From: Ignavibacteriales bacterium
GTDB taxonomy: Bacteria > Bacteroidota > Ignavibacteria > Ignavibacteriales > Ignavibacteriaceae
DNA length: 24,000 nt
Reading direction: 5' to 3'
Assembly (NCBI GenBank): GCA_015709675.1
Contig: CP054182.1
Location: 637,448-661,447 of the forward strand
Of this stretch, positions 3,481-22,648 are shown one piece after another. Under the pieces are notes generated by a model. The model did not search any database. It was not told the DNA's origin and saw only the letters and a program-made list of their open reading frames with translations. The translations under genes were made by a program, and so were the position numbers. Every line of letters starts with the position of its first letter. Within the stretch, counting starts at the first letter, position 1.

Positions 3481-5355
3481 TTACTTTTTCAAATATACCA
3501 ATAAAACGGATATATCGGAAGGGGTTAAGCCCGATATTCGCGATGCCTGCCCGACGGATCTCGGTCTGAATTTGTTCAGCCGGTCCCTCGCCTCAAGAGA
3601 CAGATTCTTAAGTCCTGAATATTCAAAATCTGAAGGAATTCTCATATCCTCGTACTTGTCAAGCTTCTCAACATGTTCTCCCTGCCGCTTGATATAGCCC
3701 TCATATTTTATCTCAATTTCTATTTGCATCTGAATCGCAGGGTCGGTGTAGTCCTGATGCTCTCCGTTCAGATAATCCTTAGCGTGTTCAGCAATCTCAG
3801 CCAGAGTGAGTTCCGGGCGCTTGGTCAGTTTGGCTACGGTTTCGGAGTTGTCCAGAAGTCCTAGTTCTTTCTTCTCCAAAAGCGGATTAATCTGGGGGGG
3901 GGTGAGCCGCACCGAGTTATAAAAACTGATACCTTTGCGGATGATTTCCTTTTGCTCTTCAAAGTACCTGAGCTCGTCATCGGTGATGAGTCCATAACGG
4001 TGGCCGTAAGTAGAAAGTCTGAACTCAGCATTATCAGCTCTCAGCAAAAGCCGGTGTTCAGCGCGGGAGGTGAACATCCGGTAGGGCTCATCGGTGGATT
4101 TATTCACCAAATCATCAATCAGCACACCGATATATGCCTCACTGCGTTTCAGAACCATCTCTGGTTTGCCGGTTATCTTTGCTGCCGCGTTAATGCCCGC
4201 TACAAGTCCCTGGGCAGCAGCTTCTTCATATCCTGAGGTTCCGTTAATTTGTCCGGCGAAGTAGAGTCCGGAAATCTTTTTTGTCTCAAGGGTAAGATCC
4301 ACCTGATGCGGGGGAAAGAAGTCATACTCAACTGCATATCCGGGGCGGATCATAACTGCTTCCTCAAGTCCCCGTATCATGTGGATAGCTTTTAGCTGGA
4401 CCTCAGCAGGCAGAGAAGTTGAAAACCCGTTCAAGTATATCAGATCGGTATCCAGCCCTTCCGGCTCTAGGAAAAGCTGATGCCGTTCCTTGTCGGAAAA
4501 TCTTACAATCTTATCCTCAATAGACGGACAGTATCTGGGTCCCGCGCCTTTAATCAGTCCGGTGAACATTGGGGACTCCTTAAATCCGGTCTCAAGAATC
4601 TTATGCACTTCCTGGCTGGTGTAAGTCAGATGACAGGGAAGCTGAGGAAGATAGGGAAATTCATTCCGCGGGGTTCTGAAAGAAAAAGGGAGGGGAATAT
4701 CATCACCCGGATGTATCTCAAGGATTTCCCAGTTGATGCTTTTCTTATCCAGGCGGGGAGGAGTTCCGGTTTTGAGACGCCCGGTTTCAAACCCCATCCG
4801 GACGAGAGATTCCGTAATACCTGTTGCCGGCTGTTCACCGAATCTTCCGCCCGATACAGCTTTCAGGCCTGTGTGCATCAAGCCGTTCAGAAAAGTACCC
4901 GAACAAAGAATCACTGCTTTTGCCGGAAAGAATTTTCCCTCGATTGAGTTTACTCCTGTTACAATACCATTTTCCTGATTTATTGCTGTGATGTTTTCCT
5001 GGAGGATAGTGAGGTTTGGTTCGTTTTCAACGATTTTCAGGGCCTCGAGTGAGTAGAGAGTTCTGTCGTTCTGAGAGCGGGGAGACCAGACAGCGGGGCC
5101 CTTAGAGCGGTTTAGGGTACGGAACTGAATACCTGAGCGGTCTGCGATCTGCCCCATCACTCCTCCGAGAGCATCAATTTCCCTCACCAGATGACCCTTT
5201 GCGGTACCTCCTATCGCCGGATTGCATGACATCCGACCAATTCCGTTTTTTTCCATCGTAACTAAAGCAACGGAGACCCCCATCCTGGCAACTGAAACCG
5301 CTGCTTCAATCCCGGCATGTCCGCCGCCAATAACTATAACATCGAAACTAAGCAA
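3481..5355 (-). CDS. mnmG: tRNA uridine 5-carboxymethylaminomethyl modification enzyme MnmG (GidA)
   Basis: 624-aa ORF with an N-terminal FAD fold ([16 protein letters not shown]). The full-length pattern matches the GidA family ([47 protein letters not shown]). Confidence 0.97.
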
Positions 5356-7214: not shown

Positions 7215-7431
7215 AAATCGAAAAAGAACTTACAGCAAAGGAATTTATTTAACTTCCGTATTTTTCAAAACTTAATATATATTAAAACCAGGCACATTTC
7301 TCTCAGCCAACAGCCCCGCATAAGGGAGTGATGTTTATTTCCTTTTTGTTATCTTGCATATAAGGGTACCGGTCAGACGGTACATTCCTTCGTGTTCAAA
7401 TTATTTAACTATCAAATATTTCAGAGGGCAG

Positions 7432-8334
7432 ATGAAACGTTACGTACTCGTTTTTTTTCTTTTGGCAGCCGTATCAGTTAAGCCGCAGACGGTTGATACT
7501 TTTTTCTATGGTGACACCCGCGCCGTGCTTCCGAATCCATACGGAGCAGGTTATATAGCTGGCACCAATGCTTACCTTGATATCGGCAAATATCAGCGCA
7601 TTGATGTATATGCTGAAGCACTCATCCGCGGGACGGTTATCCACATGGGTTTTAAACAGATTGTAGATACTCCTGATACTATTTATATTGTATTCAGGGA
7701 AATGGCCGCGGACAGCTCTCCCGGCACTTTGCTCGCCTCAATCACCACTACGCTTGATCAGTTTGATACTACAAACGGACTTTCCTTCATGCTTCCTAAT
7801 CCGCTGCCGATGCCGGGCGGTCCTTTTGTTCCGGTGCATTTTTACATCGGGCTTGAGTGGGATGTTGCGGTAAATGATACCTTCGCTCTTGCAACAGACG
7901 TGCAGGGGGAGGGAGAATACCAGAACCGCGCATGGGAGAAATTCTCCGATGGCACCTATCAGCGGTTTAATCAGGACAGTGACTTCAGCTGGCGCCTGAA
8001 CGCCGATATCTGGATCGGAGCTTTATATACGGAAGGTCTGACCAGCACTGAAGATGCAGAAGCATCTCCCTCAGTATATATACTGCGGCAGAATTACCCC
8101 AACCCGTTCAACCCGTCAACAAGGATCGGATTTACCTTGCCGGAGAGCGGTGAAGTTTCGCTTAGAGTATATGATCTGCTCGGTAATACAATTGCGGTAC
8201 TGGCAGAAGGATTCCGCGAAGCAGGCTCTCATTCCGTAAAGTTTGACGCAAAGGATTTAAGCGGAGGTGTGTATTTCTATGAACTGAATGCAGGCAGCTT
8301 CCGTGATGTGAAGAAACTTACTCTCATCAAATAA
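7432..8334 (+). CDS. Secreted protein with a T9SS C-terminal sorting domain
   Basis: The track ORF starts at 7354. I prefer the ATG at 7432 because MKRYVLVFFLLAAVSVKPQ is a signal peptide. The C-terminal 80 aa or so (LRQNYPNPFNPSTRIGFTLPESGEVSLRVYDLLGNTIAVL...GVYFYELNAGSFRDVKKLTLIK) match the T9SS type A (Por_Secre_tail) pattern. The passenger domain is unrecognised. Confidence 0.8.
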   Translation: MKRYVLVFFLLAAVSVKPQTVDTFFYGDTRAVLPNPYGAGYIAGTNAYLDIGKYQRIDVYAEALIRGTVIHMGFKQIVDTPDTIYIVFREMAADSSPGTLLASITTTLDQFDTTNGLSFMLPNPLPMPGGPFVPVHFYIGLEWDVAVNDTFALATDVQGEGEYQNRAWEKFSDGTYQRFNQDSDFSWRLNADIWIGALYTEGLTSTEDAEASPSVYILRQNYPNPFNPSTRIGFTLPESGEVSLRVYDLLGNTIAVLAEGFREAGSHSVKFDAKDLSGGVYFYELNAGSFRDVKKLTLIK

Positions 8335-8444
8335 TCACGCATAAAGGAGATTAACCGGATTTTGATTTGAGGGTTTAACGGAGATCCGGCAATGGTCATA
8401 ATTCGGTGAATCGAAATATGCAGGAGAGAGTAATTATTATTTGG

Positions 8445-8481
8445 CGGCAATCTTTGTTAAAAAGGTTGCCGTTTTTGTTTT
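8445..8481 (+). terminator. Rho-independent terminator candidate downstream of the T9SS cargo gene
   Basis: 11-bp stem CGGCAATCTTT / AAAGGTTGCCG with one G-U pair and a 5-nt loop (GTTAA), followed by TTTTTGTTTT. Confidence 0.6.
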
Positions 8482-8487
8482 GTAATG

Positions 8488-8810
8488 CCCTCCCCCTCGA
8501 CTTCGCTCGGGGACCAGCTCGGGGGCCGGTATCAGGTACCAACTCGGGTTGTCACTCCGGTCTCCGTTCCGACTGGTCGGAAGAGGAGACCAGTCACGGC
8601 TTCCCCCTCGACTTCGCTCGGGGAATGGTATCGGGGATTGGATCGGATTCCACTCCCCTCGACTACGCTCGGGGACCAGCCTCAAACACGCTCGGGGACC
8701 GGCTCGGAGACCGGAGACTGACCAAAGGAATGAGTTTTCAAAACCCGGTGTCCGAGCGGAGCCGAGGACACCGGTATTCGGGGATCGACCACGGCTCTGC
8801 TCGGAGACCG
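8488..8810 (-). repeat. Family-1 GC-rich hairpin repeats in inverted orientation
   Basis: CCCTCGACTTCGCTCGGGGACC occurs twice and CCCTCGACTACGCTCGGGGACC once. These are reverse complements of the GGTCCCCGAGCG(A/T)AGTCGAGGG module. There is also a nested hairpin, GGTCTCC-GTT-CCGAC-TG-GTCGG-AAGA-GGAGACC. Confidence 0.85.
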
Positions 8811-8870
8811 TCCTATCTGTTCATCTGACCGAGGATAAATCAGGGTATAAGCACTCGTGCGTAAAAAACG

Positions 8871-8905
8871 AATTCATAACTCATACTTCAAAATTCATAA
8901 TTCAC
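8871..8905. repeat. Degenerate tandem heptamer array (AATTCAT)n abutting a stop codon
   Basis: AATTCAT AACTCAT ACTTCAA AATTCAT AATTCAC. It ends one base before the stop codon (8906..8908) of the DUF1801 gene. Confidence 0.7.
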
Positions 8906-9331
8906 TTACGGCCATTTTTTGGCAGTGATGTAATTGTATGATTTTTTAATCAGTTCGGCGAGCACCTTCCGGTCTATATCATCAAGTGTTTTAATATATA
9001 AACAGGAAACACCGGTTTTGTATTTGCCGAGCTTTTCCATAAGTTCTGCATTCCTCGGAAAGCCGGCCATGATGTAAACTGACAGAGCATCCTTGCGCGG
9101 AGAAAATCCTGCGGCCGGAGCATCCCCCTCGCGTCCGGTTGCGTATTTGTAATGATAGGAACCAAACCCGATAATGGAGGGACCCCACATCACCGGGGGC
9201 TGCCCGGTCGCTTTTTGCATCATTTCAAGCAGTTCGAATGATTCTCTCCTTTTCTTTTCATCGGAGACTTTGTTAATAAATTCAGCCGGACTGGTTTTTT
9301 CCGGTTTGGTTTTATTTTCCGATTTAGCCAT
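8906..9331 (-). CDS. DUF1801 (YdhG-like) domain protein
   Basis: 141-aa ORF. The pattern ...PVMWGPSIIGFGSYHYKYATGREGDAPAAGFSPRKDALSVYIM... is typical of DUF1801 proteins as I recall them. Confidence 0.75.
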   Translation of the reverse strand: MAKSENKTKPEKTSPAEFINKVSDEKKRRESFELLEMMQKATGQPPVMWGPSIIGFGSYHYKYATGREGDAPAAGFSPRKDALSVYIMAGFPRNAELMEKLGKYKTGVSCLYIKTLDDIDRKVLAELIKKSYNYITAKKWP

Positions 9332-12081: not shown

Positions 12082-12447
12082 TAGGTGATTTCCTTTTGCG
12101 GCTTATTGCAGAAGGAAAACGAAGAATTTTAACACGAAGTAGCGAAGGGTGAAGAATTATAAAAAATGGTTCTCATGCGGTTCTGATCCCCTGAAAGTTC
12201 GGGGGTAACAAGATGAAAACTGTGGCAGAGAGTCGCGGAATCTTCGGGAGAAAACAACCTTCTGTCTGAGAATACGATACACATCACTGTTAGTTGGAAC
12301 AAAAACTGCAACTCAGGGTAGCAGTTTTGCTTTTGCAGATTTTTTAATTTTATTGATTAAGATTGACGAGAGCATCATTTGTAAGAAGGAAATAATATTC
12401 TGGAAAAAGAGTATAGATATTTGATTTAAAATACGTACCGAACGGAT

Positions 12448-12879
12448 ATGGATGTTTTAACAAAGGAACAAAGAAGAAAAAACATGCAGGCAATCAGGGG
12501 AACCGGCACAAAACAGGAAGGAAGACTTGCAAAAGCCCTGTGGAACCGGGGATATCGTTATAGAAAGAATGACAAAACGGTTTTTGGGAAACCGGACCTG
12601 ACCTTTAAGCGGTGGAAAATTGCTATATTTGTTGATAGTGAATTCTTTCATGGCTGGAAATGGGATAGCGAAAAATATCGAATTAAAACCAACAGAGATT
12701 TCTGGTGGAAGAAGATTGAAAACAACATCAAAAGAGACAAACAGGTAAACAGATTTTTAAGATACCGGGGATGGAAAGTGATTCGTTTCTGGACAAAGAA
12801 AGTCGAAAAAAATCTCGAATTTTGTGTACATAAAACCGTTAAGATAATTGAAGAAAACAGTCCAAAAAAAATACAGTAA
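12448..12879 (+). CDS. vsr: Very-short-patch-repair (Vsr) endonuclease homologue lacking the usual zinc ligands
   Basis: 143-aa ORF collinear with E. coli Vsr: N-terminal (K/R)xxNMxAI(R/K)GxxTKxE, the catalytic-Asp context GKPDLTF, then [10 protein letters not shown] and GWKVIRFW. Positions equivalent to E. coli C66/H71/C73/C117 are not Cys/His here. Confidence 0.85.
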
Positions 12880-14089
12880 GGTAAAAGAAAAACTTAAACT
12901 GGAAGTTGATCGAAAAACAACAAATGAACAGGCGTGTTTAACACATTATTTGCAAAATGCCGATACGGGCTGTTCTGAAGTATATAGAAAACCAGCTTTT
13001 AGTTACCTTAAAGCTTTACATGAGGAACTGGAATTTGTTGAAGATCCTGATTTTCAATATTACCTTCCTATAAAATGGGATATACCCTTTCCTCCGGTTA
13101 CAGAGGCAAAATTTACCTGCGTTGATCTTTTTGCAGGCATAGGCGGGACACGGCTCGCTTTTCAGAACCTGGGGGGTAAATGTGTTTTCTCCTCTGAATG
13201 GGATGGATTCGCTAAAAAAACCTATGAAGCAAATTTTGGGGAAATACCTTTTGGCGATATTACTGAAATAGAGGCTGATGAAATACCCGATCATGATATA
13301 CTGCTTGCCGGTTTTCCCTGTCAGCCGTTTTCTATTGCGGGAGTAAGCAAGAAGAATTCTCTGGGAAGAAAACACGGATTTCTGGATGAAACACAGGGAA
13401 CACTTTTTTTTGATATAGCCAGAATACTTAAATCCAAGAGACCAAAGACGTTTTTACTGGAGAATGTTAAAAATCTGGTTTCTCACGATAAGGGAAAAAC
13501 TTTCTTTATAATTTCTGAAACACTTAAAGAACTTAATTACACCATTTATTACAAAGTATTAGACAGTAAATATTTTGTTCCGCAGCACAGGGAAAGAATT
13601 CTTATAATAGGATTCGACAATACAGTTTTTAAGGGAAGACAAAAATTCAGATTTCCCGAACTGGAAGACCCGGGATTAAAAATCAGAGATATTCTGGAGC
13701 CGGACCCCGATCCAAAATATACATTGACGGATAATCTGTGGAATTATTTGCAGGAGTATGCAAAGAAACACAAAGAAAAAGGTAATGGTTTTGGTTTTGG
13801 GTTAACGGATTTAAATGGAATATCCAGAACTTTAAGTGCGCGATATTATAAAGACGGATCCGAAATACTTATACCGCAAAGAAACAAAAATCCAAGAAGG
13901 CTAACACCAAGAGAATGTGCAAGACTTCAGGGTTTTCCTGATAAATTTGTAATTCCTGTTTCTGATAATCAGGCATACAGACAATTTGGAAATTCTGTTA
14001 CCGTACCTCTGATACAATCGGTTGGAAAAAATCTTATTAAGGAACTTCGGTTAATTCATGAATCTGGAAAATCTGCTATCGCTGTTTAG
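12848..14089 (+). CDS. dcm: DNA (cytosine-5)-methyltransferase, Dcm/M.EcoRII-like, probably CCWGG-specific
   Basis: 413-aa ORF. Motif I is [10 protein letters not shown] is [10 protein letters not shown] is LLENV, VIII is [13 protein letters not shown] is [16 protein letters not shown] is GNSV. The variable region ([48 protein letters not shown]) is near-collinear with E. coli Dcm as I recall it. The start is an in-frame TTG at 12848, which is uncertain; no ATG occurs before motif I. Confidence 0.93.
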
Positions 14090-15359
14090 AGACAAAGGCT
14101 GCTCCAAGGTCTATGTAAAAGAACTCAGCCCCAATGATAATTCAAAGAACCAGGTGTATCTGGGTGGAAGTTATGATGTTCTGAATATTCTGCCGTTCAA
14201 TGAGATAAAAGCAGAAGGAATTGGGGACTGGAAAAGGGAGAGATTTAAGGCGACTGTTAATTTCGGTTGGATAGGTGAGGATGGAAACATTTTTAATGCA
14301 CCATTTGCTCAATTAATTCTGTACCCTAAATATCCCGAAGTGCGTTTTTCCGGATTTCTTAAAAAATGCGATAACCCTCCATCGGAAATTATGTCTGGTA
14401 GAGAAGCCGGAAGGCTTTTGTTTTTGGGCGTGGCTGATGGAGGAAAGTTACTCGGAAAAGCTGTTTTTCCGGATTCAGAAGTGGCTCAGGAGTTTGTAAA
14501 CTACTCCCCAAAAGAGGAAACCGGCTTATTTAAAGTTCTGTATACGAAGCGCATCGAAGATCATCGGGCGCAGCTTTTGACCGAACTGAGAAGAATTACT
14601 TCGCTTGGATGGATCGATTCGAAACGATTAGACAGGACAGGGAATATATTACCATGCAACAGTTCGAACTGCGGAGGATATACACTTGAAGCAGAACTTG
14701 GAATAACACCAAATGGTTATTCTGAACCCGATTACCTGGGGTGGGAAATAAAGCAGTTTGGAGTCAAAGATCTTAACAAAACCTCATCAGCCGTGGTAAC
14801 TCTGATGACCCCGGAGCCGGATTCAGGATACTATCATGAGTACGGAGCATCGGATTTTGTCAGAAAGTATGGATATTCGGACCTGAGAGGCAGAATTGAC
14901 AGATTGAATTTCGGAGGAATATTCAAAGCCGGTCTTACAAACGTCAGGACCGGACTTAAACTTGAAATTTCAGGATTTGATAAAACAGAAAAACAAATTA
15001 CCAGTACCGGTGGAAAAATTATATTACTGGATAATCAGGAAAATGAAGCCGCTGCATGGACCTTCTCGTCTGTTATATCACACTGGAAAAGAAAGCATAC
15101 CAACGCATGTTATATACCATCGCTTCTGAAACAAAATGGTTCACGAAAGTATAAATACGGCAACAACATATTATTGGGGCTTGGAACTGATTTTGTCCTG
15201 TTTTTAGCTCAGCTAAGCCTTGGCAATATTTATTATGATCCAGGCATAAAAATTGAAAACGCATCAACAAATCCCAGAACAAAACAAAGAAGTCAGTTTA
15301 GGATAAAATCCCGGTTTTTATCAGAACTTTACAGGAACAGTGAATGGGTTACACTTTAG
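14058..15359 (+). CDS. Type II restriction endonuclease: N-terminal EcoRII-N/B3-like domain fused to an MvaI/BcnI-like PD-(D/E)xK domain
   Basis: 433-aa ORF whose ATG overlaps the end of dcm by 32 nt. The N-terminus ([21 protein letters not shown] ... EVRFSGF ... GRLLFLGV) parallels EcoRII (FVYIKRLSANDTGATGGHQVGLY ... KRITRW ... GALTLLAF). The C-terminal half has [10 protein letters not shown] (P224-D225-x4-E230-I231-K232), the same spacing as MvaI APDFHDIEIK. Its tail (AWTFSSV...RKYKYGNN...[12 protein letters not shown]...[13 protein letters not shown]) parallels the MvaI C-terminus. Confidence 0.7.
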
Positions 15360-15419
15360 TAATGGAAGTCAAAATAAATTATGAGCGTTCTCGCGAGGTT
15401 TGGTCTTTAAATTGCTGTC

Positions 15420-15797
15420 TCACAACGTAAACAGCGTATCCACCGTAGTACTGTCACTCTGCCAAAAACGGAAGGTGTAGCTGCCGGTGGGGAGGTTGGG
15501 GATTGAGATACCGGTCAGATACCTGATGAAGCCCTGAGTGCAGACGGCCCCCTCCGGCTGCTGTCCGTAAACCGTAATGAAGCGGACTGAGTCAGCGCTG
15601 AACATTTCATAATGAGAATATCTTCCGCAGCCGTTAAGCCAGCTCGCCCAGACCCATGCGGTAACAATCGTTCCCGTTCTCGTTACATCCACTATGGAAG
15701 TTACGGGAGATTTGGCTGTAATCATCTTGGGGTTCTCTTCCGGTTCCTGGCAGGAAAGGAAGATTAGGGAGAAAAATAAGATTACCAGGGGTTTCAT
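15420..15797 (-). CDS. Small secreted/lipoprotein-like hypothetical protein
   Basis: The track ORF starts at 15878. I prefer the ATG at 15797: MKPLVILFFSLIFLSC gives a signal peptide ending in Cys. 125 aa, no recognisable domain. Its G+C looks host-like. Confidence 0.55.
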   Translation of the reverse strand: MKPLVILFFSLIFLSCQEPEENPKMITAKSPVTSIVDVTRTGTIVTAWVWASWLNGCGRYSHYEMFSADSVRFITVYGQQPEGAVCTQGFIRYLTGISIPNLPTGSYTFRFWQSDSTTVDTLFTL

Positions 15798-15936
15798 AAC
15801 AATTGTTTTTTGTTTACTGTATAAAATAAGTATAAAAAACAAGAATGTAAAGATTTTTGCAAATGAGGCGATTTTCAATTGGCACTAAAAACACTGTCAC
15901 CTCCTCAAGGTTTGGGGTAGGTCGGCGGATTGAATG

Positions 15937-16325
15937 GTTTCTGTTTTTCTCAAGGGGGGTACCGCTTTGTATTCTGGTCTCAAAAAAGTGTAAAAAGTTT
16001 GATGATGTATTGTTTGTGAATGCAGTTGATCACTTTAACAGCGGCAAACGCCAAAACAACTTAGCCCCCGAGCACACTGACAAAAAGTAGAAACTTACAA
16101 AACCGCAAAGAAGAAAACCGATTCTCCCGCAGAGTATCAATGGCGGAAATTGAGAAAAACGAATATAATCTTAACATCTCTAGATATGAAAGCACATCAT
16201 TAGACGAAGAAATTATTGATTTAAAAGAAGATAATAAGAAGCTGGTAGGGCCTGAAAAAGAAATCGCCCAAGCCCGCGCAACTCACAACCAATTCCTTAA
16301 AGAGCTGGGTCTGCCGGAGATATAG
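15937..16325 (+). pseudogene. hsdM: 3' relic of a type I restriction-modification methylase gene (hsdM), truncated and frameshifted
   Basis: Three reading frames together reconstruct a typical HsdM C-terminus. Frame A gives LFFSRGVPLCILVSKKCKKFDDVLFVNAVDHFNSGKRQNNLAPEHTDKK then a stop at 16088. Frame B gives VETYKTAKK. Frame C gives ENRFSRRVSMAEIEKNEYNLNISRYESTSLDEEIIDL...HNQFLKELGLPEI then a stop at 16325. No catalytic N-terminal part and no hsdS or hsdR are present. Confidence 0.75.
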
Positions 16326-16399
16326 GGGAGTACAAAAGCTCAAAATGTTTATGGCAAGAATATCTAATATCCCCAAGAATATATAAATTATTACTTTAT

Positions 16400-16987
16400 T
16401 TACTCGTTACCAATATCTTTTCGCATTTGCAATTCTAACTTTCTTCTTATGTTATTTAATTCCATAAGATTGTCGGTATAACTTTGAAGAACTGACATAT
16501 CAAAATTGCCTGGAACAGAAGTTGTATGCATAAAAATATTTTTAGCATTCGCTTCCAAAAATTCTTTTGACTTATTTTGATAATCATCCAGAATGGATAA
16601 TATTTCCAAACTGCCAACAAGCCGTAATTCATTTAATTCATCTAAATATTTGTTATATTTTCTCATCCATTCGAAAAGTATTTCTGCTTGAAATTGCATA
16701 ACATTATAATATCCAGAAAGGTTATATGGATTTATTTTGACCTCTTCAAAGAGCGCAAATATCTTTTTCATGGACTCTTCTCCATATTGTTTGTTGTACA
16801 ACTCTGAATTCATCAAGTCAAGATTAGACAAGAAACTTCTATAAATAATAAATCTTTTATCTCTAATCGAAGCGAGATTTTCATACTCCTTTCTTTTATT
16901 TATCTCGTATCGAATCTTGATTAAAGAATAAATTGCACCTAGAATAAAAAGAACATAACCGGTATATTTAATTAAAAATTCACTCAT
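16400..16987 (-). CDS. Hypothetical membrane-anchored helical protein (third gene of the AT-rich cassette)
   Basis: 195-aa ORF with one N-terminal hydrophobic helix (YTGYVLFILGAIYSLIKI). The remainder is rich in K/E/L/N and looks helical. No recognisable family. Confidence 0.6.
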   Translation of the reverse strand: MSEFLIKYTGYVLFILGAIYSLIKIRYEINKRKEYENLASIRDKRFIIYRSFLSNLDLMNSELYNKQYGEESMKKIFALFEEVKINPYNLSGYYNVMQFQAEILFEWMRKYNKYLDELNELRLVGSLEILSILDDYQNKSKEFLEANAKNIFMHTTSVPGNFDMSVLQSYTDNLMELNNIRRKLELQMRKDIGNE

Positions 16988-17096
16988 TATTTAAAGTACA
17001 GCTCTTATTAAGAAACACTTCACAAGAAAAGAATACCAGCCGTTGAAATGTTAAGGGATGAAACAAATTTCGGCTCACACAAAAAGAACTGTCGTC

Positions 17097-18296
17097 TTAA
17101 TCTTCATGTATTAAAAAATTTTGCCTTATTTTGAACTTATAATACTGAGAGCCAATTTTTTTCATTCTTTGATCAACAAAATAATCTTGATTAAAAGAAT
17201 AAATTGATAACTTATCACTATTTATTACATGCAACTGATTTTCATAACGTTTTGAGGCCGGAAACACTCTCCAATTTACCGGTTCGTTATGAATGTTAAA
17301 TATATCTCCGTCACTTAACTTCACAATAATTGCGTTTTCGCATTCAACTAAAATACCAAATAGTGCGTTTTTCGCAGAAACAAAATTCCCTTTCCAATTT
17401 TCAAGTTGAATTTCACCAAGTTTCCCGTACTCCCTATTATCTTTACTGTGCCATGGAGAATACTTTATAATTGATATTTTATCATTCTTTACCAGATAAA
17501 TTTTATCTTGCATTCCCCAGGAATATCCTGTTTCATTAAAAATACTACCGCTATACTTAATTTCTTTGAATTCTCTATGAACATGGTTGTTATCAGACTT
17601 TTTTTCGAAAGCGGCATGATAGCCATCAGACAAGTGTGAAGAGGCAAAAATACTGTAAAATGTCCAACCACAATCAGAACAATTGGATGAAGAAAGTTGC
17701 TTTGGCTCCCTAAAGTTACTTTCATCATTGAAATACTTGGATTCTAATCCTATTTGGTAAAGACCTTCATCACCGGCAGCTATTGCCAGGCTTCTATAGT
17801 TAGCGGAGATTGATAGCGAGGGAGCGTCCCATTTTCTTTCTTTTTTTGTACTAACTACGTATTTGTTTTTACGACGGTTACATGTTGCACGATGAATTCC
17901 ATCCTTTGAACTTGTATAAATACTATTACGGTAAATGATTGAATCTGAATGGGGAAATGGAAATGGATTATTTTGTTTAGTTAAAGTGCATCTCTCTATT
18001 TGGCTTTTGGAAATAAATAACTCCTTGTTTGAGAGATCTGAAAATTTACTAATTATTACTTGCTTGACTTCAGGATCATTAAATAATAAAGAAAATTCTG
18101 TGTTATATAAATAATCACTTCGCGAAAAGGAACACGTTAAAGCTAATTTCAAATAATCTTCAATATTTAATTCATCAAGAAGTCTATCCCAATTGACAGA
18201 AATAATTTCACCATTCAATGTGAATAAATATAGAATGCCGGAATAAATTTGTGAATCCCAAAATTGACCTTCTATGTCCAGTTTTATAGGCTGCAT
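17097..18296 (-). CDS. Hypothetical protein, 399 aa, with repetitive beta-strand-like segments (second gene of the AT-rich cassette)
   Basis: A long ORF in very AT-rich DNA, which is unlikely to stay open by chance. Its ATG overlaps the upstream gene's stop within ATGCAGCCTATAA. No recognisable catalytic or NTP-binding motif. Confidence 0.7.
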   Translation of the reverse strand: MQPIKLDIEGQFWDSQIYSGILYLFTLNGEIISVNWDRLLDELNIEDYLKLALTCSFSRSDYLYNTEFSLLFNDPEVKQVIISKFSDLSNKELFISKSQIERCTLTKQNNPFPFPHSDSIIYRNSIYTSSKDGIHRATCNRRKNKYVVSTKKERKWDAPSLSISANYRSLAIAAGDEGLYQIGLESKYFNDESNFREPKQLSSSNCSDCGWTFYSIFASSHLSDGYHAAFEKKSDNNHVHREFKEIKYSGSIFNETGYSWGMQDKIYLVKNDKISIIKYSPWHSKDNREYGKLGEIQLENWKGNFVSAKNALFGILVECENAIIVKLSDGDIFNIHNEPVNWRVFPASKRYENQLHVINSDKLSIYSFNQDYFVDQRMKKIGSQYYKFKIRQNFLIHED

Positions 18297-18694
18297 GGCT
18301 GACCTTTAGTTATTTTTCTAATTTTAGTCGGTGGGAATATTGATAAATTTAACCATTTATTAAGAATTTCAGTATCAGGAATATCATCTGTGCAGCGTTG
18401 ATAATCAATTGGATATCCATGCCAGTTTTGACCACCAACAAATTTTGCTATAAATAATTGTTTGGTACCATTTTGATCGATACCCAGATACTGAACTGAC
18501 GATGTATCGCTAAAGTGTAACCCCCAGCCAATCTGCTCTTTAATCCAATTCTCTGTAAGGCATCGTCTAAAACATTCAAATTCCTGCATCGCCGTAATAG
18601 TCCATTGGGATTTATTATTAGCTCCGTTTCTATGGTGCGGATGTGACCGATAACAAATGTTTGAAAATATAACAGTTTCATTAATTCGGGACAA
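18284..18694 (-). CDS. Hypothetical protein, 136 aa (first gene of the AT-rich cassette)
   Basis: TTG start preceded by AGGAG with a 6-nt spacer (AGGAG AATATT TTG). Features include a Cys/His cluster (C14, H18, H20, H21, C41, C45) and a QNWHGYPIDY segment. No family recognised. An alternative start is M36. Confidence 0.6.
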   Translation of the reverse strand: MSRINETVIFSNICYRSHPHHRNGANNKSQWTITAMQEFECFRRCLTENWIKEQIGWGLHFSDTSSVQYLGIDQNGTKQLFIAKFVGGQNWHGYPIDYQRCTDDIPDTEILNKWLNLSIFPPTKIRKITKGQPCSL

Positions 18695-18789
18695 AATATT
18701 CTCCTGTTTTTTTCTCTTAAATATAATGTACTTATTACAATCTGTAAAATGTCACCTCTTCGAGGTTCTGGGGCAATGGCGGATTGATT

Positions 18790-19270
18790 AGTTTCTACAG
18801 TAATGTCATCACTTCGTGATTTTGGCTGGTGTGTGTCTTTGCGGTTTTCTACCAATCTTCGACTCCTCCGGAGTCGGGTTGGGATTTTGGGGATGCGTAA
18901 TTTTCTACCAATTTGCGACTCCGCTGGAGTCAGAGGTTTCATGTCATCGGATTTCTACCAATGTACAATTCCTCCGGAATTGAATCGGGTTTTGAATCCG
19001 GAGGATTCACATCTTGGTAGTTATGATAAATGCCCCGCATAAGAACGAATCCGGAGGATTCGAATATCTCAGGAGAGAATCACCAGATTGTTCAAAAATC
19101 TGCGACTACTCTGAGTCGGGTTGGGATTTTGGGTATGCGCAATTTTCTTTCAAAATGCGATTCCGCTGGAGTCGGATGGAAAATTAATAATTCATCATTC
19201 AGATTTCAGAATTGTTTGCGACTCCTCCGGGGTCGGGGGGAATTTCATGTCATTGGATTTTCTACTAACC
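18790..19270. repeat. Family-2 hairpin-repeat field
   Basis: TTTCTACCAAT occurs at 18846, 18902 and 18952. A 47-nt module, CGACTCCTCCGGAGTCGGGTTGGGATTTTGGGGATGCGTAATTTTCT (18860..18906), repeats at 19103..19148 with 4 mismatches and 1 indel. Short hairpins include GACTCC-NNN-GGAGTC and GAATCC-GGA-GGATTC (18993, 19046). CATGTCAT(C/T)GGATTT(T)CTAC occurs twice. Confidence 0.8.
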
Positions 19271-19361: not shown

Positions 19362-19393
19362 GGGCGGCTCGCGAGCCGCCCCTGCAGTTTTTT
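19362..19393. terminator. Perfect 20-bp GC-rich palindrome followed by a T-run; possible (bidirectional) terminator
   Basis: GGGCGGCTCG/CGAGCCGCCC (19362..19381), then CTGCAG TTTTTT. It lies about 65-95 nt downstream of the tricorn-like gene, which is on the minus strand. The T-run, however, is on the plus-strand side, so the orientation is ambiguous. Confidence 0.4.
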
Positions 19394-19426
19394 AACACCA
19401 CTCAGCCGGGTGTTGGTTTCTGAATC

Positions 19427-19457
19427 AATTCACAATTTACAATTCACCATTCACAAT
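19427..19457. repeat. Degenerate tandem heptamer array (AATTCAC)n abutting a stop codon
   Basis: AATTCAC AATTTAC AATTCAC CATTCAC AATT. It runs into the stop codon (19457..19459) of the protease gene. Confidence 0.7.
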
Positions 19458-22400
19458 TATTTCAGCAGTTCTTCAACTGCGCGTTTGAGTTGTTCATCCA
19501 CGCCTTTTGCTTTGCTGTCAGGGTAGGTGTCAACTAAGATGTGCGGTATGGCGGGACCGGTTACTTCCTGGTTTTTGTCGTCAGCCAGGGTGTACCAGCC
19601 GCGGAACGGGAGCCGGACAAAGGAGCCGTCCATCAGTCCCCTGCCTCCGGTGGAGATGACGGAGCCGTTGGTTGGCTTGCCGACAAGTGTTCCGATGCCG
19701 AGGTTCTTATAAGCATGTGAAAAGATTTCTGCATTGGAGTAACTTGACTCATTGCAAAGCGTTATGCTCGGCTTCAGCCATGCAGTATATACAAGCCGCT
19801 CTCCGGTCGGATAGTAAGGACGGAATTTTGTTTTTTCTTTTTCTAGATCTTCTGCCGCGCCACGCGGTATGGTGTATGCGTGCTGTTTGTAGTTGAGTAT
19901 TGCCATCAGAAGGTCAGTGGTTGAACCGCCGCCGTTATAACGCACATCTATAACCAGCCCATCCTTGCCATAACCGGCAGCGGTTAGTTCGCGTTCAAAT
20001 TCTTCAAAGCTGACCATATCCATGCCGCGGATGTGTATATATCCGAGCTTTCCGCCGGAGTATTTGTCAGTGAGTGCTTTGCGGTCGGCAACCCACTCTT
20101 TATATATCTGTGTGCGGAGTGATGCTGCGGGACGTATAACCACATCGCGGGTTTTACCTTCTTTTCCTTCAACGGTCAGGAGTACCTGCTCATCAGCGGT
20201 GCCGGCGAAGAGTGAGTATATATTAACATCATCGGTAATCTTAACTGAACCGACCGAGCGGATGATATCCCCTTTCATCAGACGGCTTGCGGTGCGGTCT
20301 GCGGGTGAGCCGGGGATGACACGCAAAACCTCAACGCCGTTCTTAACGGGTTTCAGTTCAGCGCCAAGCAGCCCGGTTGCTTCTTTCTGTGTTTCAGCAC
20401 GGTCATTGCCTGAAAGCCCCATGTGGCTTGAGTTCAGTTCGCCGAGCATCCAGTTAAACATTTCGCGGAAATCACTTTCGGTTGAGGCCGCCATGCAAAG
20501 GGGGAGATATTTCGAGCGAAGGGCTTCCCAGTCCTTGCCGTGGAAATCAGGATCATAAAATCCGTCACGCAGGGTGCGCCATGCCTCGGCAAAGACCTGC
20601 TGCTTTTCCTGTTCGTAATCAATCTTCATCTTTAGTATATACGGAAGCGCTTCTGCCTTGTCGGTCTTCAGATCGTGACGGCTGAGTGAGCCGCCGGTTC
20701 TGAAGTAGTATAAATAAGCGCCGTCAGCTCCGCCTGATACTGCCATCGGGTTCTGTCCCCCTTTGGTCAGCTCTTTCAAATCTTTGCCGTCCCATTTGAT
20801 GCTGTAAAGGTCATTCCCCTTTGCGCTGCTTGAAGAACCGGTGTAATAAAACGTTTCGCCGTCTTTTGAAATGCGCGCGTTCCCCTCGTTGCCGGGGAAT
20901 GTGGTAACCTGTGTGAGGCGCTCGTGAATGTTTTCAAAGTCAATCACAACCGGAGTAACCTTCGCGCTGTCTTTTTTGCCTGCGGGCTTGTCATCCTTCT
21001 TTGCGGGTTCTTTGTCTTCCCAGTCCTGTTTGGTGCGCTCCCAGTCTTCTTTTTTCAGCCAGGCAAACCAGACATCGTTGTTGCGGCCATTGCGGGCAGA
21101 GATGAATCCGAGCTTTGAGCCGTCCGGCGACCAGACGGGGTTTGAGTCACCGCGCGGGTGCATGCTCACATTAACCGGCGGCTGTGAGTTGTCGGCGGCG
21201 TGTATATATACTTCGTCATTAAAATAGAGGTCGCTCATGCTGTAGGCAATCCAGCGGCTGTCAGGGCTCCAGGCGGCGTCATCAGCGGAAGCCCAGCCCT
21301 CGTGAAGAATGGTTTCTTTACCGAGTGAGCCCTCTTTGCTGATTTCAGCAACGATGAATGTACCGCGTCCACGCATAAAGGCAACTTTTTTGCCGTCCGG
21401 GGAAACGACCGGACGGGATTCATCCTCATCGGTTTTGGTAATGCGTATGACCTCATGGCGCAGCGAGCGGAACGGATTTGGCTGTGATTTATCAGCGCTG
21501 CGGAGTATATATAAATCAAAATTGTCATCCTCCCGGTCTGAAACAAAGAGGAGTGTGCTGTCATTAAGCCACGCGGGGTTCATATCGCGGAAAGGATGAT
21601 TAGAAACATTAACGCTGCGTGATTTATCCTTATCAACCTCCTTGATAAAAATCTCACCGCGGTTCACCAGTGCAACCAGTTTTCCGTTTGGTGAAACTTC
21701 ATATTCGCTGGCATCTTTGCTGAAGGATTTCAGTTCTTCCGGGTCGAAGCGGTTATCAGCCGGGACGGTTATATTCAGCTTTTCCGGTTTGGAAAAATTT
21801 TTCATAATCCAGAGTGATGTTCCCTGCTCAATCACTGCATGTTTTCCGTCACCTGAGACGGTGAAATAGCGGACTGCGTAGTCCTTAAAATTCGTAAGCT
21901 GTTCGGGCCTCCCCTGCGGCTGTCCTTCCTCGCTGAGGGTGATGCGGTATATATTATACTTTCCGTCAGCGGAGCTTATATACGCAAGAGTACGGCTGCC
22001 GGTCCATTGGGGCATCAGTTCGTTGCCGTTGGAAGGGGTGATATTGGTATAGGTGTTTTTCTTTGAATCGTAAAGCCAGATATTCTTATTTGCCGCACCG
22101 GTATATCCTTCGCGGGTAACAGGGTTTGATCCGCCGATGGTAATGGCAATAAAGCGGCCGTCGGGCGACTGCACCGCATCAGAGCCGAGAGCGTCAAGCA
22201 GGCGGTACTCTGTTCCCCCCGTGGGACTGATCGTATATACTTCCGGATCCCGTTCAACATGATTGAACTCCCTCACGGTTGCAAAGAGGATATTCCCCTG
22301 CTTAGTCCATGAAGTTACCATGTCACCGGAAGAGTTCCAGGTAAGGCGTCGTGCCTGTCCGCCGGATGCAGGGATGATGAAAATATCACTGTTGCCGAAG

Positions 22401-22648
22401 CGAGCGCCTGAGAAAACAATCTGGCTGCCGTCAGGACTGAAACGCGGATGTCCCTCGTTTCCCTCATGCACCGTCAGACGGAGTGCAGTACCGCCCGAGG
22501 AGGAGACTTTCCAGATATCCCCCTGGTAGGAAAAAGCCAGCTCACTGCCATCGTGGTTGAGCGCCGGATGGCGGAGCAGTTTTGCTTCACTCTGCGGAAA
22601 GAGTGATACGGTTGCAAAAAGGAGCAGTGCAGAAACTAATTTCAGCAT
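19457..22648 (-). CDS. Tricorn-like protease homologue (TolB-type beta-propellers + PDZ + S41 peptidase core)
   Basis: 1063-aa ORF with signal peptide MLKLVSALLLFATVSLFPQ. The N-terminus LLRHPALNHDGSELAFSYQGDIWKV and the repeated SPDG..(I/V)AF propeller motifs fit the family. A C-terminal S41-type core is present (VIDVRYNGGGS, CNESSYSNAEIFSHA). Confidence 0.9.
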   Translation of the reverse strand: MLKLVSALLLFATVSLFPQSEAKLLRHPALNHDGSELAFSYQGDIWKVSSSGGTALRLTVHEGNEGHPRFSPDGSQIVFSGARFGNSDIFIIPASGGQARRLTWNSSGDMVTSWTKQGNILFATVREFNHVERDPEVYTISPTGGTEYRLLDALGSDAVQSPDGRFIAITIGGSNPVTREGYTGAANKNIWLYDSKKNTYTNITPSNGNELMPQWTGSRTLAYISSADGKYNIYRITLSEEGQPQGRPEQLTNFKDYAVRYFTVSGDGKHAVIEQGTSLWIMKNFSKPEKLNITVPADNRFDPEELKSFSKDASEYEVSPNGKLVALVNRGEIFIKEVDKDKSRSVNVSNHPFRDMNPAWLNDSTLLFVSDREDDNFDLYILRSADKSQPNPFRSLRHEVIRITKTDEDESRPVVSPDGKKVAFMRGRGTFIVAEISKEGSLGKETILHEGWASADDAAWSPDSRWIAYSMSDLYFNDEVYIHAADNSQPPVNVSMHPRGDSNPVWSPDGSKLGFISARNGRNNDVWFAWLKKEDWERTKQDWEDKEPAKKDDKPAGKKDSAKVTPVVIDFENIHERLTQVTTFPGNEGNARISKDGETFYYTGSSSSAKGNDLYSIKWDGKDLKELTKGGQNPMAVSGGADGAYLYYFRTGGSLSRHDLKTDKAEALPYILKMKIDYEQEKQQVFAEAWRTLRDGFYDPDFHGKDWEALRSKYLPLCMAASTESDFREMFNWMLGELNSSHMGLSGNDRAETQKEATGLLGAELKPVKNGVEVLRVIPGSPADRTASRLMKGDIIRSVGSVKITDDVNIYSLFAGTADEQVLLTVEGKEGKTRDVVIRPAASLRTQIYKEWVADRKALTDKYSGGKLGYIHIRGMDMVSFEEFERELTAAGYGKDGLVIDVRYNGGGSTTDLLMAILNYKQHAYTIPRGAAEDLEKEKTKFRPYYPTGERLVYTAWLKPSITLCNESSYSNAEIFSHAYKNLGIGTLVGKPTNGSVISTGGRGLMDGSFVRLPFRGWYTLADDKNQEVTGPAIPHILVDTYPDSKAKGVDEQLKRAVEELLK

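Follow-up and report, generated by a model that had tools for sequence, protein, structure and literature searches.

A translationally coupled gene pair encoding a small basic protein and a predicted beta-propeller: a candidate mobile conflict module in Bacteria

Background

Type II toxin-antitoxin systems in which the toxin gene comes first (the higBA, hicAB, mqsRA, and brnTA types) are two-gene operons with a small upstream protein, and their genes overlap and are translationally coupled. They are carried on plasmids and islands and have spread horizontally and patchily. In the present study, we analysed a gene pair that resembles them in all these respects, gene A (136 amino acid (aa) residues) and gene B (399 aa), in a 24,000-nucleotide (nt) stretch of DNA from an Ignavibacteriales metagenome-assembled genome (MAG; contig CP054182.1), referred to below as the window. 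An initial annotation of the window had grouped A and B with a third gene, C (195 aa), as a cassette of an undescribed defence or toxin type; the products of all three genes are deposited as "hypothetical protein". We found that A and B are a conserved pair in genomes from many phyla, that the pair is horizontally mobile, and that B, the proposed antitoxin, outlives A, the proposed toxin, as in the type II systems.

Unlike the type II systems, A and B have neither sequence similarity nor significant fold similarity to known toxin or antitoxin families, and the proposed antitoxin is a predicted propeller of 400 aa without a DNA-binding domain. The pair also resembles, conceptually, DarTG and the fused toxin-antitoxins of the CapRel type, in which a restrained toxin is released when an invader engages the restraining partner and which are located in defence islands and on mobile elements. 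There is no homology to these systems, and a sensing role of B is suggested solely by what propellers generally do as binding platforms. Literature searches on propeller antitoxins and on the Acinetobacter plasmid pALWED1.4 gave no account of such a family. Both A and B are new families, and the kind of system is a familiar one.

Results and discussion

Conserved pairing of genes A and B

The pair was studied in six gene-context look-ups, in 80 loci centred on B homologues in species-representative genomes, and in 80 metagenome loci centred on A homologues. In the window, the ATG of B comes before the TAA of A, and the A open reading frame (ORF) stops 12 nt past the start of B; the overlap of the start of one gene and the stop of the other, which had been pointed out in the initial annotation, is thereby 13 nt long. 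An identical overlap was observed in 150 of 159 further A-B pairs, which come from genomes, metagenomes, and plasmids, an unusually clean signature that makes the hypothesis presented below directly testable by cloning two small genes. An A homologue lies directly upstream of B almost everywhere in the context look-ups and the B-centred loci, and distant pairs with B sequences merely 23-30% identical still have the overlapping A gene. Sinorhizobium, Ruminococcus albus, and Acinetobacter lwoffii carry these distant pairs on plasmids, and four IMG/VR contigs have them as well. A and B are inherited together as a translationally coupled pair, as are the genes of type II toxin-antitoxin systems.

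In the case of Sinorhizobium americanum plasmid A (NZ_CP013108.1; locus L094), the A gene, at 4558-5013, is absent from the PLSDB gene table and runs with the usual 13-nt overlap onto an annotated B-like gene. In one metagenome contig (L147, 648-854), the A/B junction is tandemly duplicated, and the duplicate covers profile positions 101-138 of A, at its end, and positions 1-54 of B, at its start.

Losses of the two genes are unequal. Among the 80 A-centred metagenome loci, B follows A in every case where the contig is long enough: it is full-length in 51 and runs off the contig end in 22; five loci do not have the room to judge, and two are ambiguous. No A without B was found among these loci, and at most 2 of 75 have an A whose B is lost or damaged. 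In the B-centred genome loci, A is absent in six cases and frameshifted in five, and B is intact there with its motifs. The asymmetry is significant (Fisher p = 0.017). Five of the six A-less loci belong to one clade from Verrucomicrobiota and relatives, in which B has kept all its motifs and has no conserved partner upstream or downstream. The members of this solo-B clade (L033, L034, L035, L038, and L039, from Verrucomicrobiia and 'Sulfotelmatobacter' MAGs) share a distinct N-terminus, MSDTKQIAPL...

Protein B, a predicted seven-bladed propeller

More than 261 homologues of B were collected, all of them unnamed and without a Pfam domain. The AlphaFold2 (AF2) model of B, with a predicted local distance difference test (pLDDT) score of 90.6, contains 28 strands in seven groups of four, and a helical insertion of about 65 residues (approximately residues 36-102) follows blade 1. 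A Foldseek search with the model gave 597 matches in the PDB at E <= 1e-3, with propellers at the head of the list. On this modelling evidence, B is predicted to be a seven-bladed beta-propeller. The best matches were the WD40, BamB, and RCC1 propellers (seven- or eight-bladed), at E of about 1e-7 and probability 1.0; as their identity is at most 11% and their template modelling (TM) score at most 0.53, B, as modelled, is a propeller without a close relative. Unlike the WD40, PQQ, and RCC1 proteins, B has no such Pfam repeat, and the helical insertion as well as the motifs PFPFPHxDS, AAGDEGL, YENQLH, and SFNHDYF set it apart from the WD40, BamB, and RCC1 propellers. Neither domain searches nor the model revealed an HTH, RHH, or AbrB domain in B.

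Proposed mode of action

The reading that we favour, and to which we give about an even chance on the comparative sequence data, is that the pair constitutes a mobile conflict module, complete in two genes, that belongs with the toxin-antitoxin or abortive-infection systems; A would be the toxin and B its neutralizer. The asymmetry of loss is what one would see if A did harm in the absence of B and B alone did none, and A is read as the toxin for this reason. The opposite assignment, in which B would be the toxin and A the antitoxin (the canonical gene order), was considered and rejected, because B persists intact without A.

In this module, A would be a small, basic protein of the cytoplasm with an enzymatic activity harmful to the cell, and B would restrain it by stoichiometric binding. 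If the module were lost, or if a product of an invading phage or plasmid sequestered or degraded B, A would become free and the cell would be arrested. Beta-propellers are common ligand- and protein-recognition modules and general binding platforms. Since defence genes are also frequent neighbours of the pair, B may in addition be a sensor, the trigger point engaged by an invader, and the pair would then be a device for abortive infection. The copies on plasmids and integrative elements would fit simple addiction equally well.

Several observations weigh against the toxin-antitoxin reading. The asymmetry of loss equally fits an effector that needs B to work, and some of the frameshifted A genes come from long-read metagenome assemblies and could be sequencing errors. 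B is far larger than classical antitoxins and, as noted, has no DNA-binding domain; it also has many invariant polar residues of its own, so that it could be an enzyme and not a passive inhibitor. The counts of defence neighbours given below are raw, without a background rate, and housekeeping genes are the neighbours at many loci.

A rival reading is a sensor-effector anti-phage system, in which B would recognize a phage protein and activate an otherwise inactive A without constitutive neutralization. The established role of beta-propellers in recognition and the defence genes that often adjoin A-B are in keeping with such a system, as is the finding of no A without B in the A-centred loci, which is expected if A is useless alone. 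However, a solo-B clade that keeps all the motifs and has no partner is odd for a sensor lacking its sole effector, strict 1:1 translational coupling suits a stoichiometric complex, and carriage on a small plasmid beside replication genes and insertion into a tryptophan operon (see below) are more like the behaviour of an addiction module. We therefore consider a sensor-effector system unlikely.

Distribution, mobility, and neighbouring genes

Homologues of B were found in 101 of 185,579 species genomes (about 0.05%), in Desulfobacterota, Gammaproteobacteria, Binatia, Acidobacteriota, Chloroflexota, Verrucomicrobiota, Cyanobacteria, Bacteroidota, Planctomycetota, Bdellovibrionota, Omnitrophota, and Actinomycetota. 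The A-B pair spans at least 12 phyla, and plasmid copies add Alphaproteobacteria and Bacillota. In 59 of 61 loci, the module is poorer in G+C than the flanking sequence; the median difference is -8 points. One pair lies on a 14-kb MOBQ plasmid of Acinetobacter and adjoins the replication genes; others lie on the Sinorhizobium and Ruminococcus plasmids, or within elements with integrase, relaxase, HTH, SSB, or TraG-type genes. In a Candidatus Thiosymbion ectosymbiont (L007/L014, at approximately 7386-9215), the pair is situated inside the tryptophan operon, between trpB and trpA. As judged from this distribution, the pair is mobile across phyla by way of plasmids, integrative elements, and genomic islands. 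In the Thiosymbion copy, A is split by a frameshift and B is intact, and a PD-(D/E)XK gene is inserted one gene earlier.

No GenBank phage carries A-B. Four IMG/VR contigs classified as "viral" (L090-L093) carry distant A-B pairs alongside genes for a relaxase, an integrase, a TraG/DUF87-type ATPase, and an HTH_36 replication-initiator-like protein; they resemble integrative mobilisable elements and not phages. A phage-borne module was rejected on both of these grounds.

The neighbours of the pair are highly variable: 148 upstream neighbour proteins match 172 different Pfam families. The closest homologue has Abi_alpha, Mrr, and Fic as neighbours, and another copy adjoins a DUF1156-DUF499-DUF5131 operon. 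Defence genes found elsewhere are SIR2 (three loci), AbiEii (two), PtuB (two), PglW, HerA, a DRT reverse transcriptase, and a type I methyltransferase. The context resembling a defence island, which the initial annotation had described, is real in the window and at several other loci, but it is not universal, as many pairs are in housekeeping, plasmid, or integrative settings. Such mixed settings are as compatible with a toxin-antitoxin module of the selfish kind as with a dedicated defence system, and the argument from a defence island deserves less weight than it was first given. In two unrelated genomes, an fpg/nei DNA glycosylase gene is located a few kb upstream of A-B (L003, 2351-3079; L008, 6648-7496), which may be a recurrent insertion neighbourhood or a coincidence.

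The distribution also bears on whether the pair might have a function outside conflict, with B as a propeller enzyme or binder with its own cellular role and A as its obligate subunit, cofactor, or regulator. The many invariant polar residues of B, its survival without A in one clade, and the housekeeping neighbours at many loci agree with an accessory function of this kind. It is nevertheless improbable in view of the very patchy occurrence over at least 12 phyla, the consistently foreign composition, the carriage by plasmids and integrative elements, and the lack of any conserved pathway partner.

Protein A, a candidate enzyme

For A, 172 homologues were collected; these are again unnamed and without a Pfam domain. 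A HMMER scan of 1.84 billion representatives enlarged the family to 676 clusters at 50% identity. The initial annotation had recognized no domain in A, B, or C, and profile searches agree: none of the three matches Pfam, NCBIfam, PADLOC (PADLOC-DB v2.0, E <= 1), or PHROGs, and no homology of A or B to known families was found. Nothing consistent was obtained when all 34 members of the A alignment were scanned singly against Pfam at E <= 10, and PDB sequence-profile searches with the A and B families gave no usable match.

The conserved residues of A, as judged from the alignment and the distant plasmid copies, are H21-R22, W31, E38, an AKF motif with K84, and a WHGYP motif with H92 and Y94. 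This set of invariant or near-invariant His, Arg, Lys, Glu, His, and Tyr residues suggests that A is an enzyme. The protein is basic (median isoelectric point 9.1), and B is mildly acidic (6.2). In the AF2 model of A (pLDDT 94.5), a hairpin at the N-terminus is followed by a helix, a beta-meander, and a pair of helices at the C-terminus. The structure comparison that placed B among the propellers gave A no significant neighbour in PDB or BFVD. The three best hits, all sub-threshold (E 0.11-0.2, TM 0.32-0.36), were chains B and D of 5e3e and chain B of 8hhj. The former are the RNase A-superfamily toxin domain CdiA-CT of Y. kristensenii (PMC5435912). The latter belongs to the MafB2-CT/MafI2 toxin-immunity complex, in which MafB2-CT has the RNase A fold (PMC9970974); the chain, 8hhj_B, is either MafB2-CT or MafI2. 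RNase A itself was at rank 26 of the Foldseek list.

Like the RNase A-superfamily and BECR RNase toxins, A is small and basic with a predicted alpha-plus-beta-meander core; metal-independent RNases use His, Arg, Lys, and Tyr, for which H21/R22, K84, and H92/Y94 are the candidates in A by conservation. A differs from these toxins in its additional N-terminal hairpin and two C-terminal helices, and the immunity proteins of CdiA-CT and MafB2-CT are small and not propellers. The structural similarity to RNase A-like toxins is a coherent lead that falls short of a finding. In the proposed mechanism, A would most likely be a metal-independent RNase that uses these residues, an activity that is weakly supported.

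The toxins just named raise the question of whether A is an exported effector of an interbacterial polymorphic toxin system and B the immunity protein of the producer cell. A's best weak neighbours indeed come from contact-dependent and Maf toxin-immunity complexes, the gene order of toxin and then immunity matches A-B, and the solo-B clade resembles orphan immunity genes. By contrast, each of the best 150 of the 676 A representatives stands alone, with a length of 93-205 aa and the domain in C-terminal position, and none of these 150 is fused to an Rhs, PAAR, LXG, VENN, or haemagglutinin delivery scaffold, unlike CdiA-CT and MafB2-CT. Secretion-system genes do not recur among the neighbours of A-B, and the pair occurs in phyla as unlike as Cyanobacteria, Chloroflexota, and Bacillota. 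An exported toxin is accordingly very improbable.

Within the toxin-antitoxin or abortive-infection reading, we tentatively suggest, with less confidence than in the reading as such, that A-B founds an undescribed family in which, as modelled, the propeller would be both the antitoxin and the invader sensor for a small RNase-like toxin without a recognizable relative among the structures solved so far. If this is true, the bacterial conflict systems would gain a new family of toxins and, in an entire beta-propeller, a novel class of antitoxin, and propellers, which are known sensors in eukaryotic and NLR-like immunity, would also act as stand-alone restraint or sensing partners in minimal bacterial modules. 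About 700 clusters of "hypothetical" proteins are flagged for annotation by the present analysis, and A-B is a candidate that defence-system predictors currently miss.

Gene C

The initial annotation had treated A, B, and C as one cassette and had likened C to membrane-anchored abortive-infection effectors. The description of the third gene itself was accurate: it follows B after 109 nt, and its hydrophobic N-terminus, YTGYVLFILGAIYSLIKI, is read directly from the sequence. The protein has an N-terminal hydrophobic helix and then a helical region. The cassette, on the other hand, was not borne out. Co-occurrence across genomes, very strong for A and B, fails for C, which has 17 homologues at 59-67% identity, none of them in the other A-B loci fetched. 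They are surrounded by hypothetical genes and by genes of mobile elements (RadC, DUF932, and Mu Gam-like), with neither A nor B among them, and C may be part of another cargo set of conjugative or integrative elements. An effector role of C has no comparative support, as C is absent from the other A-B loci. At two loci (L098 and L099), the C homologue is preceded by an unannotated gene of about 244 aa.

No other gene takes the place of C. All-against-all clustering of 408 neighbour proteins gave no third gene recurring beside A-B; the largest clusters had four (Uma2-like) and three (HsdM) members, and a third conserved gene was rejected on this count. Because C is absent from other A-B loci and no neighbour recurs, the conserved unit is the two genes A and B, and C is an unrelated adjacent passenger; C was rejected as a member of the module. 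A three-gene cassette with C as a membrane-anchored abortive-infection effector is scarcely credible: C is on the same strand, no terminator-like site was detected between B and C, and C shares the low G+C of the block, but the comparative data contradict it, with just 17 homologues, which sit elsewhere without A or B. What stands of the initial proposal is an undescribed, horizontally acquired locus of a conflict type beside R-M genes, missed by the libraries tested and made up of two genes instead of three.

Organization of the window

The features of the window are listed in Table 1. The three minus-strand ORFs are present and intact, and the start site described for gene A is seen in the sequence. 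Matches to the sigma-70-like consensus are commoner across the region than in shuffled sequence.

Table 1. Coordinates of genes and sequence features in the 24-kb window
Feature	Position	Strand	Description
Gene A	18284-18694	minus	136-aa ORF, TTG start; NCBI QOJ27756.1
Gene B	17097-18296	minus	399-aa ORF, ATG start
Gene C	16400-16987	minus	195-aa ORF
A/B overlap	18284-18296	minus	13 nt, ATGCAGCCTATAA; holds B start and A stop; translational-coupling junction
Gene A initiation region	18694-18748	minus	AGGAG-N6-TTG; read from sequence
Sigma-70-like TTTACA-17-TATATT	18748-18720	minus	Upstream of gene A; consensus match alone
Vsr	12448-12879	plus	PF03852, E 3e-27
Dcm (C5-methyltransferase)	12848-14089	plus	PF00145, E 6e-97
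MvaI/BcnI-family restriction endonuclease (REase)	14058-15359	plus	PF15515, E 9e-47
hsdM 3' remnant	15941-16325	plus	Frameshifted type I restriction-modification methyltransferase; two collinear fragments, different frames
Repeat cluster	18842-19246		About five repeat copies of 46-64 nt; flanked by gene A and the peptidase gene

The G+C profile was computed in 400-nt windows. A sharp contrast between the three genes and their surroundings had been noted, and a discontinuity is present: G+C is 0.27-0.37 over 16400-18800 and 0.45-0.55 in the housekeeping flanks, so that the step is real and the earlier hand counts (23-32% and 47-67%) were too extreme. The low-G+C block is real as well, but it is not confined to the three genes. 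The tract starts near 12200 and takes in the restriction-modification (R-M) operon (0.34-0.44 over 12400-15400), and a patch of native-like G+C (0.45-0.50) at 15200-15800 cuts it in two. A 152-aa minus-strand ORF at 15420-15878, with a lipoprotein-like signal (...LIFLSC) and about 50% G+C, separates the R-M operon from the block that contains the hsdM relic and C-B-A. An ORF of such composition between two low-G+C blocks suggests two separate insertions rather than one island.

The vsr-dcm-REase operon (12448-15359), already recognized in the initial annotation and now backed by the three Pfam matches, is a type II R-M operon with Vsr; it is context and lies outside the A-B module. The frameshifted hsdM remnant was likewise recognized correctly, and its fragments align to residues 353-369 and 414-450, in the C-terminal part, of the HsdM of a locus neighbour. 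There is no tRNA gene in the window, and no integrase was found among the window ORFs scanned, in accordance with the initial annotation.

Each copy of the repeat between the peptidase gene and gene A bears a short palindrome of the type GAYTCCNCYGGARTC / GACTCCNNNGGAGTC, and shuffled versions of the region fold less stably than the region itself (z = -4.1). The motif is absent elsewhere in the window and from all 179 other loci, and the repeats match no Rfam family. A type III toxin-antitoxin system, with a repeat-RNA antitoxin, needs a tandem array of short repeats that is conserved upstream of the toxin gene, and the motif of the window is not conserved in this way; the hairpin repeats were rejected as an RNA antitoxin or conserved regulatory element, given the absence of the motif from the other loci and the null result with Rfam. 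They may be a repetitive extragenic palindromic (REP)- or miniature inverted-repeat transposable element (MITE)-like element that marks the boundary of the island. The flanking minus-strand gene (19457-22648) is an ordinary housekeeping gene for a tricorn-like protease with PD40 propeller repeats and the Tricorn C1, PDZ, and Peptidase_S41 domains, and it ends in a G+C-rich hairpin at approximately 19375-19400.

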